This document shows, piece after piece, positions 29,473 to 35,400 of a DNA stretch of 64,000 nucleotides. The notes beneath the pieces were generated by a model that was given only the letters and a program-made list of their open reading frames with translations, was not told the origin of the DNA and made no database searches. The position numbers were made by a program, and so were the translations under genes. Position 1 is the stretch's first letter; each line of letters opens with the position of its first letter. The stretch is from Amphiscolops sp. MND2022 (taxonomy: Eukaryota), in assembly GCA_964187785.1 (NCBI GenBank), contig OZ076409.1:68760001-68824000 (forward strand). The letters run 5' to 3'.

Positions 29473-32400
29473 TCATAGTTTTGTGACCTTGGGTCCCGAA
29501 GCGTCGGTGGGACCACTGCCGGGTGGCCCCGTTGCAGGTCGTTTGCGGTTCGTATCCTGCAGAGGTTGTATGCCGAGGACTTTGTGAATGTTCTTGAATG
29601 TGATCAATCGCAAAGCGTGCTGGGCACTGGCCGTGATGTCTTCTCGTTGTTGAGCAGTGAGAGATTTCGCAGCGTCACATTTTTCTTTTTCACAGGGATC
29701 CATGAGTCCACACCCACCAGGAAGCAAGACACCTATTGCACATAAAGCAATAGAAAGTTTTGAAACTTTAAATATGGATAATCCATGAATTAATCATCTA
29801 TTTAACGCATACAAAATGAGATTTTTGAATCTATTTTACGTAACAAACTAGTTTGATTGCAATCGCCTAAGATGTCGACGCATCAGGAAAATAGGCCCCT
29901 CCGGGGCACATTACTATTTCTGCTTTAATCTTTCATTAATAATAGAATAATATCTGGAATACCAATACACTCCTGTTTAATCATTATTTAGCGCACAATT
30001 AATCACCGTCCAAGTTTACACCGCCTTCAATTCTTCTCGGACTAAAGAAAATATGTATAGCTACTAAGCGTAGACGAAGTTTCGCATTCGCATTTGAATG
30101 CAGGCGAAGCTTTCAACGAACAAATCATTAACACTCATTCGCTTCATCTCAATGACGTCAGCATACGAATGCATAATTACCACTCGCTCGTTCCATCGCA
30201 CGAGAATTGAAATGTCGCCGGCAGCTTGAGAAATTTAATTCTCACGCTTACAGTCACTGCCGAACAAATATCTGTATTCAGTATCGTGCGAAGAATTGTA
30301 CTGAAAAAAAGTAGACATCTCGAGATTTCAATAATATTCCTGCTATCGCAGAAATAATAAAAATCGTTATGGTCTCCTAAAAATGCATTTTGATACATTT
30401 GGTCTAGCGTCAATTTTTGGTTCCCACGAAATGTTTTTTCGAAGTTCGCACACCCCTTTTGTGGTATTGATCGTTTTGAATGAGAAGTAATATCAAACCT
30501 GATGCCATAGCTTCGATGACTCTTCTGAGGGCATCGCCTGGACTCATGAAGGACTCGGCGTTGCAGCTGAGAGCCTTCTCAACTAGCAACTCAGCAGCCC
30601 ATTTCGGCAAAGGATTCCAAGACGACACTCGGTTGATGAGGTCATAAATAATCCGAACTATTATCACACAGGAAGCCAAACCACTAGCGCGAGATTCGAA
30701 CCATTTCTGGTGACGCAGCTCTGCCAAAACAGCCAGACATTTGTCTTTGGATATCTTGGACCGTTCCTCCAGAGCTGCTTGGGTGTTAGCAGGAGCAGCA
30801 TTCACTTTTTCCTCATCGCTATTTTTACCCTCACCCTCTTTTGATTCACCCTCGGTTCGACAAATGGGGGAAGTCAAATAAATATTGATAGTAATTATCG
30901 GGTTTGAAGTTGACCGCACGATTATAAGCCCGTCCTCAAGTTTTAACTGAGTTTCGAACTTGAGTTCCTCTGATTCGGTTGACTCTTTCAGCGAATCCGG
31001 TAAGAACTTGAACATTCGACTCAGCAGAATTGTCGTGGGCCAGTGTTTGCACAGAACCGCCATAGAAACTGTTCGATCGCCTTTCAGCATCAAACCTGTA
31101 AATTACGAAGATGTATAGCTTAGATTTAAAAAAGGACTACAATTTGTTTCAGTAAAGATTTAGTCATAATTGAAAGCTCATATTGGTTCAAGGTTCCTTA
31201 ACCTCGACAGTACACCGAGAAGTCGAAGAACAGACAAAAATTTGGCATTTTTCAAAGCTTCATTTCTCCATGAATATTAGCCGCAACTCAAATCGGTTTT
31301 CTGCTCCTGGAAGCCAGTCGCCGGGCCTTTCAAATGCCGGTCTCACTGAAGCTGCATTGAAAAAACTTCTATATGCGCTTTCAATGGTGGCCTGCAGAGT
31401 TATTAGAGTGGGACAGTAACTCAGCAGACGGTTGCTCAGTTAGTGAGAAAAGGCTATTTTTAGTCGGCGCTTTTCGAAGAAAAACGCAGACTATAGTAGT
31501 GACTTTTCTTTTTTTAAGACCAACGAACTGACAGATTTCATAAGCTTTATAAGCTGCGTCCACTAACTGCCACACTTGTAACTTCTACTGCCACTTAGCA
31601 TAGAGGTTAATTAGGATAGTTTTTGATGTCTGCCAAGCAGAAGGACGTGGGTTCGAGTCCCGCCCATGACCGAAAATTGTTGTGCAGGTTTTTTCGGCTT
31701 TGTGAGACTTTTTTCTCAAATTTTTTAAATGTCTCCAAAGGGTCCCCCTTCATTTTTTCCTATTTTGCAAAACAATCGATGTTCAAAAACTCCCAAAGGC
31801 CCCCCTTTTACATTTTTCGGCACTATGCGACTTACCGGAGACCAAAGAAAAATTCGAAAAAAATCAAAAAAATGATTTTTTTTTCAATTTTTTCCTCAAG
31901 CGGGTACTGTAGAAGAGAATACTTGACACATTGAAGTCCTTTTGCTATTTTTGAGCCTTAGATATGGCGCCGACTTGGGCCGTTCCCGGCTTGTTCTGAA
32001 ATGTAATACGTTGCAAAATTTTCCAGTTTACTTTTTCATTTACAATTTTCCAGTTTATTTTCCAGTTACTTTTTTGCCAGTGGCTCGGAAAAAGCTATAC
32101 TAACACAAATAATTTTTCCTATATTCTTTTTGTGTTTCGTGATTTTTTATTGATTGCGAAATCGCTGTCCTCATTTAAGGACGAAATCACTATCAAGGTT
32201 AACAATAACATGGATAAATTCATCAAATTTTCAACAAATGTGTCAATGGAAAAAGCATCGAAAAATGTATACTTGGAAAAGATTGAAGAACTCCGAATAA
32301 AAAAATAAACGATTTTTTTTCAAAATAACTGATGATCTGGATTACAAGACTTAACATTAAATTTTCATATTTCCGTAAAGCTTCCGACAAACATTCATAC

Positions 32401-35400
32401 ACAACTGATCCGCATCACTAAAATCAGACTAAAATCAGCACTACCAAAAATTAATGAAAGGCGAATCTTATTTACACTGTTACGTTCGAACAACTCTGAA
32501 AATCAACTTAGTACTCAAATGATTTGAACATCAATCGAAGCCTGTATTGAAGAGGTAATGCGATGATATCTCATTATCACCCACCTTTCGCGAGAATTCC
32601 AATTCTCATGACTCCCTTCAACTCGCGAAACTTTGACGCGTCATCTTCAACTTCCGGTTTCTTTTCAGCGCCTTCACCAGCTGTAGGATCTTTCTCAGAG
32701 GTGCCGCTAGTCACAGCCTCTTCCTCTTTGGCCTTGGCTCTCTCCTCTTCGAAGAGTTTGTCAGAAACCAGTTTAAGAGCCTTCTCGGTTTTGATCACGA
32801 TGTCCTGCACAGCCGTCAACGTTTCCTCGTCAGGGTAGATGGTCTGGTGCTTAGCCAACACATGGCGGTCGTCGAAACTCTCCGCTTGCTGTATTAACAG
32901 ATTACATTATCTCAGCCGGTCCATTTCTTGCAACGCCTGATTATCGGAGTTTATAACTTAAGGGGTCACGAAAATTTTTCAACACAATACCAGGGGATCT
33001 AAATAGCGAGGAGTCCAAATGAACTGAAGATAAAATTAATGAATGCGAAAGGGTCAATATTAGACACAGAGGCGAAGCCGTGCTTCGCAAACACTTGCGA
33101 ACTTTTGAAGAAAACCAAATAAGCAATATCATACAGAAAACCAAGGGTAAAAGGAGATTAAAATTTCATCAATTTTACAGCGCCAAAAAATACCCGAAGG
33201 GATACGCGTAAGCCTCGAAAACCATTCTTCCCCAACTGAAAACAGCAAAAAACCCATTCTTTCTCAACGGAAAACCTTAAACAGAAAGAAGAAAAAAATT
33301 TCAAATTTTTTCGAAAACATTTTTGATGGTCTCCGGTAAGTCGCAAAGCCTTGAGGAGTCCTCTCGCAAAACGTTTCGTTTCTTGTAAAAATTGAGCAGG
33401 GGCTTCGGTGAAAACAAATTTTAAAAAAGTCGCATATAAAAAAGATCGGTCTTTAAAAAACGGTCTTTTAAAACTAAAAATTGAGAAAAAATTTTCCGAA
33501 GTTTTTCGAATTTTTTTGAAGTTTCCGCTAAGTCGCATAGTGCCGAAAAATGTGAAAAAGGGACCCTTTAGGATTTTATAACATTCGTTCTGTTGCAAGA
33601 TATCAAAAAATTGAAAGGAGGACGCTTTGGGGACATTAAAAAATTTTTGAAAAAAATAAGGGGAGTCTAAAAAATTTTTGAAAAAAATTAGAATTTTGAA
33701 CAGTCTCATAGTGCCGAAAATTCTGAAAAAAGGGACCCTTTGGGATTTTTTAACATTCGTTCTCTTGCAAAATATCAAAAAATTGAAAGGAGGACTCTTT
33801 GGGGACATTTAAAAAATTTCGAAAAAAAGTCTCACAAAGCCGAAAAAAAGTCTCACAAAGCCGAAAAGTCTCATAGTGCCGAAAAAGTCAGAACCTTCTG
33901 CTTCGGAATACTTGTAAAAAATTAGCGCATACCCACGGGTTCGAACACGAAACCTCTGGGTTGAAAAGTAAGCATCTTACCACTAGACCACGAACGCGTG
34001 AAACGTGCGAGTTGCCGCGTGAAATCAGAGAGTTGTCGCGCGGAAAAAAAGCACCCGCACTTTCCCATAACACTTGCTTATCGCAAGTGTAAAGAATAGA
34101 AAACTTCTTTTCTCTCAAAATTTGAACTGGTATTTATTTGCTCAATGCCAAGGGGGAAATTAATGAATTAAAAAATTCAAAATGTTGGTATTAAAATCAC
34201 TACGGTTAACAGTTGAAAAGTCCAAGAAACCAATGTTTTTAATGAGTATCAAGCTGCGTATATTTTTACAGGTTAGCTCACAGAACGACGCCAACTAAAA
34301 CGAGAAACGAACTGTTTCAAGTCGATGTAACCACTGTACAATCATCACAGAGCAACTACCGCACTGAAAAGAACACTTTCGAGTAGATTTAGGCTCAAGT
34401 TTCAATTCAACGTGGCAGACATTCATAAAAGTATCTGAAAGCAGATGACAACGAACTTCGCACATTCACTGTCAAAACATCCAGTTACCCAAATATCAAA
34501 CTACTCACTTTTCTGTTGGCCATTCCTCCACCAAACCGAGCATACAGCTCTTCTTCCATTTTCCGCATCTCTTCCTGCAAAACAAACATCGAGACGTTAG
34601 GATACTTTACGCTCGGTATTAATTCAAATTGAGGAGACTCTCCAGTTTTGTTGGTTTTGAGAGTCAAGATTATGCTTTTAAATCACTTTCTTACTTTCAT
34701 GGCCCAAACATCGTCCATCTTCCACTGATTAGCATGTCTGTTCTTGAGTTGACGCATTCTATCTTCGGCTGCTTTCTTGCTCCTTGGGTTCGGTTTATTG
34801 TCTATCTTCAGCTCTGGATTCACCTATGCACATTCAGTCTCATAAATTCACCATAGTGCAAGATGCAAGAAAAAAATTCGAGAAAAAAGCTTCTTCATAG
34901 CCAAGTCAAGTTATATTTTTCTAAACGGTTGTCCTCCAGAAAAATTCTTGCAACCCTTGTCGCCGTGGAACTATTCAACTGCAAGAATGCGAATTTGGAA
35001 ATACGATTTGGAACAAAAGCAACTTAATAAATAGAAACAAAATTAACGCATGATTTCAGAGTTACAACACAAGTTTGTATTGCGCAATCAAAACTCTTGC
35101 CAAACTCAGCTTGAGCATCCTTCATTAAGATTTTTTCACCATTAAAAATGGGTGTCAAAAAAAATTGGCGACCGAGCATTCATTTCAAAATCAAACTGTC
35201 ATCAAAATAATGGCATTGTGAAAATGGGCAAATTCGATTCATGTTCTAGTTTAACTCTACATGTATTGAACCGTAACAACCTAGCCATGCATGGTGAAAT
35301 GATTCATTCCAACCTTTTTCTTGTAAGACAATCTATGTCTTCTCCCCTTGAGATGCATGTCCTTGGCGTTGATGTCATTGAACTTGCACTCACACAGCTT

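Follow-up and report, generated by a model that had tools for sequence, protein, structure and literature searches.

Promoters for RNA polymerase III (Pol III) are known in mobile elements where an RNA copy is needed, as in the short interspersed nuclear elements (SINEs), Cassandra and Helenus. Among rolling-circle DNA elements, DINE-1 is stated to be without Pol III promoter sequences or similarity to transfer RNA (tRNA; PMC2374699), the main texts of the HINE and HELIANO papers do not contain the word 'tRNA' (PMC4067079; PMC11417382), and complete boxes were not found in the bivalve elements DTC84 or pearl (PMC3879986). The subject of this study is a 64-kb stretch of the genome of Amphiscolops sp. 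MND2022 (contig OZ076409.1, positions 68,760,001 to 68,824,000; the window hereafter), in which Helentron-type elements, unlike DINE-1 (PMC2374699), carry a tRNA-derived module with A and B boxes behind their front end. The carrier is a known kind of element, and its cargo, a probable relic of a tRNA gene beside the front hairpin, is undescribed in the literature searched; no description of a tRNA-derived module in Helentron or HINE elements was found there, which is weak evidence of novelty, as that literature does not extend to most subscription papers and Repbase entries, and the supplementary consensus sequences of PMC4067079, PMC7492417 and PMC11417382 could hold further cases.

The window elements are like HINE and DINE-1 (PMC4067079; PMC2374699; PMC11417382) in their subterminal inverted repeats, the partial inverted repeat at the front, the stem-loop at the back, the T-rich target without duplication, the central tandem repeats and the lack of coding capacity, although their subterminal repeats measure 9-10 bp, as against 11-15 bp in PMC4067079 and PMC11417382. 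Two families can be distinguished by their ends. Family A begins with a T-run, followed by the 9-10-bp subterminal repeat and its partial inverted copy, and finishes with the inverse repeat and a 4-5-bp stem-loop (-3.7 and -4.6 kcal/mol in the two that were folded); both ends could be shown for 16 elements, the repeats being degenerate or deleted in a few. The three copies of family B, all on the minus strand, have ends of a different sequence and the same design, with a subterminal repeat (10 bp in two of them, 8 bp in the third) and its inverted copy, and a back stem-loop with a 7-bp stem in two of the three. Hairpins of -8.1 to -11.9 kcal/mol are predicted at all three front ends that were folded. 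At the one clean site, where element 10931-11590 can be compared with the empty paralogous site 17270-17320, insertion took place in an A/T run with no duplication beyond the run. The central tandem arrays have periods of 115-151 bp, and those of the two families are 74-86% identical in the longer matches; part of the family B back arm is also 75-82% identical to three old family A elements. Since the array and part of the back arm are shared but the ends are not, one body has been joined to two end types. No transposase family was detected among the 14 of 31 long frames of the window that were scanned, no autonomous partner was seen, and exact scans for the element ends were negative in both viral and metagenome contigs (0 stretches each). 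By their structure the elements are best classified as non-coding, non-autonomous members of the Helentron type (HINE/HLE2). The three family B copies, the parts of one of them and one family A element are located as follows:

33064-34092, minus strand: complete family B element in an intron of the ZFR gene, between exons 34497-34823 and 32583-32894
34068-34090, minus strand: front end of this element, a 10-bp subterminal inverted repeat (34081-34090) with partial inverted copy, hairpin of -8.1 kcal/mol
33476-33886, minus strand: its central tandem array, common to family A
33072-33100, minus strand: its back end, subterminal repeat 33091-33100 and 7-bp stem-loop 33072-33088
43018-44165, minus strand: family B copy whose module (44036-44075) is without a B box through deletion
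55958-57079, minus strand: family B copy without the back hairpin, module at 56923-56994
31456-31995, plus strand: intronic family A element in ZFR, antisense to the gene, both ends intact

The bivalve elements Cg_HINE, pearl and DTC84 are alike in having a left arm, a short array of 115-150-bp units and a right arm, and their modules recombine between families (PMC7492417; PMC3879986); in the window, by comparison, the ends A and B are unrelated although the arrays between them are related, and the slot ahead of the array is taken by a tRNA-derived unit. Some further arrangements of the carriers were observed. Region 37127-37560 consists of a head-to-head pair of diverged family A front halves that can fold as one long hairpin; one of them has a module and the other a weak module. 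Doubled front ends, each of two tandem copies of a 52-53-bp terminal unit, occur at 60236-60344 and 60637-60747 in two family A elements facing apart. The related family A elements 10931-11590 and 39085-39740 end at the same A-rich spot in two copies of another repeat family, by shared insertion ancestry or a preferred target, and at 57079-57103 a family A element ends 24 nt before a family B front end on the same strand.

Homology to tRNA was assessed with a profile hidden Markov model (HMM) made from 265 distinct phage tRNAs of about 19 isotypes, which were fetched with generic box patterns and included no window sequence. Significance rests on this generic set only, with 30 locally shuffled windows as the null. 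Six matches were obtained in the window at E<=0.0021 (14.0-23.6 bits), where the next scored 3.8 and the best shuffle 8.3:

31627-31665, plus strand: 23.6 bits
56990-56934, minus strand: 17.6 bits
13343-13314, minus strand: 16.5 bits
3909-3957, plus strand: 15.6 bits, new relative to the original prediction
33993-33937, minus strand: 14.1 bits
18950-19002, plus strand: 14.0 bits

Because these matches exceed the shuffles, the tRNA origin claimed in the original prediction is supported, and the sites it had listed at 31596, 56933, 33935, 18950 and 13316 are all covered. Its remaining sites fared less well: they were not significant with the generic HMM and are known from their A plus B box-pair scores, 23.5 for 20722-20795 and its duplicate 22502-22575, 18.6 for 52055-52075 and 20.2 for 37375-37430 (the null has its 95th percentile at 13.5 and its 99th at 21.7). 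To the HMM matches, box-pair scoring of 27 front ends, chosen by their termini, adds the front ends at 20592, 52391 and 37557. ARAGORN detected 0 tRNA genes in the window, a whole-window standard scan gave nothing significant, and relaxed ARAGORN settings yielded 17 matches as against 8-19 in shuffles. In Rfam the module at 33936-33997 matched tRNA with 14.5 bits, below the cut-off of 29, 31606-31672 gave two matches to tRNA-like families (T-arm-like), both below cut-off, and three other single modules gave no tRNA match. On the profile evidence the modules are tRNA-derived, and the standard finders give no intact tRNA gene. The modules and remnants are as follows:

33926-33997, minus strand: family B module, A box from 33990 and B box from 33946; by eye D stem 4/4, acceptor 5/7, T stem 2/5; Gly or Glu type
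33916-33921, minus strand: predicted Pol III terminator of family B, a T6 run lying 4 nt past tRNA position 73
31589-31671, plus strand: family A module, A box from 31596, consensus-like B box 31650-31660, T stem 5/5, T6 at +17
20714-20802, plus strand: family A module with both boxes at 61-nt spacing, element 20590-21174
22494-22582, plus strand: second copy of the 20714 module through a 1744-bp tandem duplication, hence not inserted independently
18936-19009, plus strand: module in an old family A element with its back end at 19353, an array remnant and an unrecognisable front end
13308-13343, minus strand: consensus-like B-box half without the A-box half, T6 at +5; carried by 13135-13495, a family A element whose ends are intact
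52225-52330, minus strand: first of two related modules in the old family A element 51365-52393, box spacing 78 nt
52049-52140, minus strand: second module of that element, 64-nt spacing
25776-25841, minus strand: A-box half with the B box deleted, in a family A element starting at 25975; newly recognised
37364-37435, minus strand: module with a good A box and a degenerate B box, no array after it; one arm of the head-to-head front halves
15753-15805, plus strand: B-box-only remnant in a decayed family A element; newly recognised
3892-3960, plus strand: tRNA-derived segment with T4 at +2, link to an element not significant
3717-3727, minus strand: A-box-like remnant at offset 120-124, in a subfamily (3848, 11587, 38123, 39738) without B box

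The duplication that doubles one module-bearing element (20325-22068 and 22105-23846, 1744 bp, 99.5% identical) may be recent or an assembly artefact, both being possible. A short word from the 31589 module recurs after the family B terminator (33895-33905, minus strand) and after the 3892-3960 module (3995-4005, plus strand), which hints at a partial second module.

The position of the modules bears on how they arrived. Four of the six HMM matches lie in the front arms of elements with recognisable front ends (31459 plus, 13493 minus, 34092 minus and 57079 minus), in slots that, as defined by intact ends, make up 5.5% of the window's two strands; the fifth (18950) belongs to an old element that is recognised by back end and array, and the sixth (3909) is without a proven element. 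All five that can be assigned to an element are on the element strand, none being antisense. The slot, described earlier as fixed, is so in most cases, at roughly 70-140 nt: of 11 measured sites, 9 have the A box starting 102-141 nt behind the front end, while the two modules of the 52391 element have it at 68 and 258 nt, and in family A the start falls at 119-141 nt in 8 of 10 sites, the other two again belonging to this double module. In the 57079 copy the offset is 92 nt. The claim that modules are always on the element strand can be maintained at scores of at least 16.6, a cut chosen after seeing the data, where 7 of 27 front ends have a sense and 1 of 27 an antisense hit, the latter being the module of an overlapping opposite element; at the 95th percentile of the null, however, the split narrows to 9 of 27 against 6 of 27, in part an effect of the near-palindromic B box. 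Similarly, a place just before the array applies to the 6 of 10 tested modules in which the array motif follows after 18-51 nt, but in one it comes at +136, and it is absent within 400 nt of 37364-37435, 3892-3960 and 15753-15805.

Independent insertions of SINEs or tRNA pseudogenes, landing by chance in abundant elements, would be an extremely unlikely source of this pattern. The match at 3892-3960, the one possible free copy, could be counted in their favour, as its link to an old element split by the 3291-3850 insertion is not above the null, and one module has a 7-nt word on both sides. On the other hand, the matches are concentrated in the front-arm slots and on one strand, no tails were seen and no duplication adjoins the modules (longest shared word at most 7 nt in 8 of 8). 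The three family B copies, moreover, have unrelated flanks, are 94-96% alike over their first 210 nt and hold the module in register, which for family B largely refutes separate insertion. Different flanks with the same module place and no target-site duplications imply movement with the DNA element; as had been predicted, the module is carried by a Helentron-type element and is not an independent SINE insertion.

A run of at least four T begins 2-6 nt past tRNA position 73 in 8 of 11 modules, after 17 and 20 nt in two more and after 50 nt in one (18936); for random element positions the share with such a run is 24% at up to 5 nt and 38% at up to 10 nt. Such a T-run ends Pol III transcription, and the layout is that of tRNA genes and not of SINEs. 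The module thus reads as a pair of boxes with a stop signal, resembling a tRNA gene with its terminator instead of a SINE head, and any transcript would be an RNA of about 75-95 nt and not an array RNA. The original prediction had proposed a promoter yielding repeat RNAs, with the caveat that oligo-T runs would stop Pol III early; the T-runs bear out the caveat, and such a promoter is not supported. It is therefore considered very unlikely that a SINE-like promoter produces repeat RNA from the downstream array: the boxes are indeed upstream of the array on the same strand, and the first T4 of the 18936 module is far away, but the T-run comes within 6 nt in most modules and within 20 nt in 10 of 11, and the array strand is itself full of T-runs.

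When eight two-box modules are placed on tRNA numbering, the box columns are 0.77 alike (0.88 in the B box) and the other columns 0.36, compared with a non-box identity of 0.38 for real tRNAs of different isotype and 0.57 for the same isotype; the strong divergence reported before is thus confirmed, and is like that of unrelated tRNAs. Box spacing varies from 41 to 78 nt among two-box modules, and type 2 promoters tolerate variable box spacing. The module folds were not better than those of shuffles in 8 of 8 cases (z -1.1 to +1.3), the cloverleaf having been lost.

Several described systems combine some of these features. Helenus/TRIMp3, a non-autonomous element too, likewise has as a stable component a decayed tRNA whose boxes are conserved, but there the promoter would make the template for reverse transcription, whereas the rolling-circle elements of the window need no RNA and their unit is closed by a T-run (PMC10886601). 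The long terminal repeats that characterise Helenus/TRIMp3 are absent: the window elements end in inverted repeats and hairpins, and the module occurs once or twice within the front arm. In Heliconius, Metulj SINE subfamilies 3 and 4 reside in a Mariner miniature inverted-repeat transposable element (MITE) and a Helitron-like repeat, so that a tRNA-derived Pol III head is likewise spread by a DNA element; these are whole SINEs nested in single families, whereas the window modules are without a SINE body and their slot is common to many diverged subfamilies and two end types (PMC4016481). An Arabidopsis tRNA-Cys cluster that overlaps Helitron annotations has been proposed to reflect capture of a tRNA gene by a Helitron, which according to its authors would be the first non-coding RNA cargo of a Helitron, although Helitron tools did not confirm the elements (PMC10701932). 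That cluster consists of local tandem functional genes, whereas the window carriers are dispersed HLE2-type elements with clear ends and a tRNA relic near the front end (PMC10701932). Compared with SINE2 elements, the modules share the tRNA-derived head with A and B boxes, but a body or tail transcribed from that head is lacking at the sequence level, given the early T4 runs, as are target-site duplications and a dispersed insertion pattern of their own, with 3892-3960 as one possible free copy.

Whether the modules stem from different tRNAs, as had been suggested, must be answered separately for the two families. In family A, the non-box 3' halves are 0.70 identical for 13308/52049, 0.67 for 31589/13308 and 0.63 for 31589/52049 and 31589/18936, values of 0.63-0.70 being reached by 0.3-1.9% of different-isotype pairs of real tRNAs (55 pairs compared), and the 31589, 52049, 52225, 25776 and 20714 modules have a leader and acceptor sequence in common (0.59-0.81). 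These related modules occur with both main A front-end types, a distribution indicative of a single old capture, and for at least part of family A the suggestion of different tRNAs does not apply. Family B modules, with a non-box identity of 0.19-0.48 to those of A, have nothing in common with them beyond the boxes, and would represent a second capture or an older divergence. Isotype calls gave Gly 29.4 versus Glu 26.3 bits for one family B copy and 28.7 versus 30.1 for the other, so that 'Glu-like' becomes a tie of Gly and Glu, and Asp 22.3, Arg 22.0 and Gly 20.5 for the 31589 module; seven further tRNAs fetched for the 37364 module were all Arg, which leaves its isotype unsettled. The references were phage and metagenome tRNAs, not those of the host, and the Glu, Gly and Arg sets were fetched with module-shaped patterns, which inflates scores against them.

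Repeated acquisition through an exchangeable slot behind the front end, entered more than once, and at least separately in A and B, by different tRNA genes or by reverse-transcribed pre-tRNAs primed at T-runs, is possible but somewhat doubtful. It would fit the low non-box identity between B and A modules, set against arrays that are 74-86% identical, the differing best isotypes and the exchangeable spacers between the left arm and repeats of the clam element DTC84 (PMC3879986). Less in keeping with it are the leader and acceptor sequence common to five A modules, the weakness of isotype calls made on non-host references, and the finding that the generic HMM gave no significant tRNA match at other T-runs of the elements. 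This history is compatible with a role of the boxes in binding Pol III factors, which is taken up next.

Conservation of the boxes is suggested by several comparisons. The B-box core is intact while the directly adjoining indel-free columns are at about 0.2-0.55 identity, insertions in several modules are placed between the boxes, and two family A copies with intact ends, from different A groups, have near-perfect B boxes (scores 19.9 and 19.6). In a rough neutral model the 6-nt B-box core is kept in 5 of 8 lineages with P 0.0005-0.05 for assumed identities of 0.50-0.67. With a CpG observed/expected ratio of 1.01 over the whole window there is no CpG depletion, so that methylation-driven decay of the B-box CpG is not expected. 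The boxes may well have been kept in several lineages, through selection at the level of the element, for binding TFIIIC/Pol III beside the front hairpin.

A mechanism can be envisaged for such a benefit. An ancestral element would have captured a tRNA gene together with its terminator at the DNA level, once for family A, with family B going back to a second capture or to the same event. The unit would give at most the RNA of about 75-95 nt, the array remaining untranscribed. Its predicted start is 60-135 nt from the front end and points inward, which would place the initiation factors immediately behind the front hairpin. With its complex directed away from that end, Pol III could clear nucleosomes and load negative supercoils onto this hairpin, where a RepHel transposase from an unseen autonomous partner is predicted to nick single-stranded DNA. 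For the bat Helitron Helraiser, the left end is essential and the transposase cuts only single-stranded DNA, of which transcription-driven negative supercoiling upstream of the complex is regarded by the authors as a possible source (PMC4778049); copy numbers are also higher for bat Helitrons that have captured promoters (PMC4224331). B-box sites need no tRNA structure to be bound by TFIIIC, and a B box alone, as at 13308, might act as a TFIIIC site like the extra-TFIIIC loci of Drosophila (PMC4226948). Any advantage would be facultative, since several multi-copy subfamilies spread without the module. That the self-terminating Pol III unit, facing away from the front end, is a domesticated cis-acting 'end opener', which unwinds the nick site without an RNA intermediate, was kept across diverged subfamilies and two end types and, as a side effect, distributes TFIIIC sites over introns, is an unlikely extension.

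A number of observations weigh against a maintained function. Modules are recognised by their boxes, which inflates box conservation, and the neutral model, itself crude, falls short of significance at its upper assumption. The element strand is rich in T-runs, and related modules are non-independent tests. In the two complete family B modules the first base of the B box departs from the consensus and the score is only 10.7, one of the three family B copies is without a B box, and among the 27 front ends both boxes were found in 6, both in weak form in 1, the B box only in 2, the A box only in 6 and neither in 12. A B box is also missing from three multi-copy family A subfamilies, which have 4, 3 and 2 copies with front ends 86-94% alike. 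Helraiser is an HLE1 element, the starting end in HLE2 being assumed by analogy, and the evidence base is one window at the sequence level. The cargo is dispensable to the element. In a tree of 20 family A front ends, 3 of 17 branches are well supported, and the box-less multi-copy groups are separate, with no order of losses. The main rival to a TFIIIC/Pol III role is consequently neutral cargo, in which a tRNA gene, picked up by chance on one occasion, has decayed ever since and its boxes seem conserved only because they enable recognition; we regard this as possible, although it falls short of probable. It agrees with the module being absent or half-lost in 20 of the 27 front ends, with the spread of multi-copy subfamilies without it, with the capture of host DNA of all kinds by Helitrons (PMC4224331) and with the passive transport of Heliconius SINEs by a Mariner MITE and a Helitron-like repeat (PMC4016481). 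The intact B-box cores beside diverged columns, the near-perfect B boxes in two intact-ended copies and the insertions placed between boxes are harder to reconcile with it.

The surroundings are those of an intron-rich animal region in which about 20.8 kb of the 64 kb is sequence repeated within the window. Exons of the ZFR gene are spread over the minus strand between about 45260 and 29480, with best matches at 98, 83 and 74% identity and named homologues at up to 60%, and exons of WDPCP/fritz from 64000 to 58340; for a fritz exon the sole longer homologue found was from the acoel Symsagittifera roscoffensis (45% identity), a single match that makes an acoel host likely. For the modules inside the ZFR gene an intronic location is borne out, as exons flank the elements. 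Elsewhere, a 287-codon open frame (24322-25185, minus strand) resembles by eye the front of a zinc-finger DNA transposase and gave no Pfam match, and exon-like open frames were seen at 11903-15375 and 19928-20311 (both minus strand), of which the five scanned gave no Pfam family. A third small, old repeat family (44336-44502, minus strand; 50651-50823 and 54528-54649, plus strand) has an A-box-like stretch followed by a GC-rich hairpin and no match to the tRNA profile.

If the modules are neutral, they represent a clean, ordinary case of gene capture, with the caution that repeat libraries may file such elements as SINEs. The arrangement also offers a direct test of an open point in Helitron biology, the source of single-stranded DNA for the first nick. 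Should TFIIIC bind to the boxes, the introns of the host would also be receiving chromatin-organising sites from a very abundant repeat.

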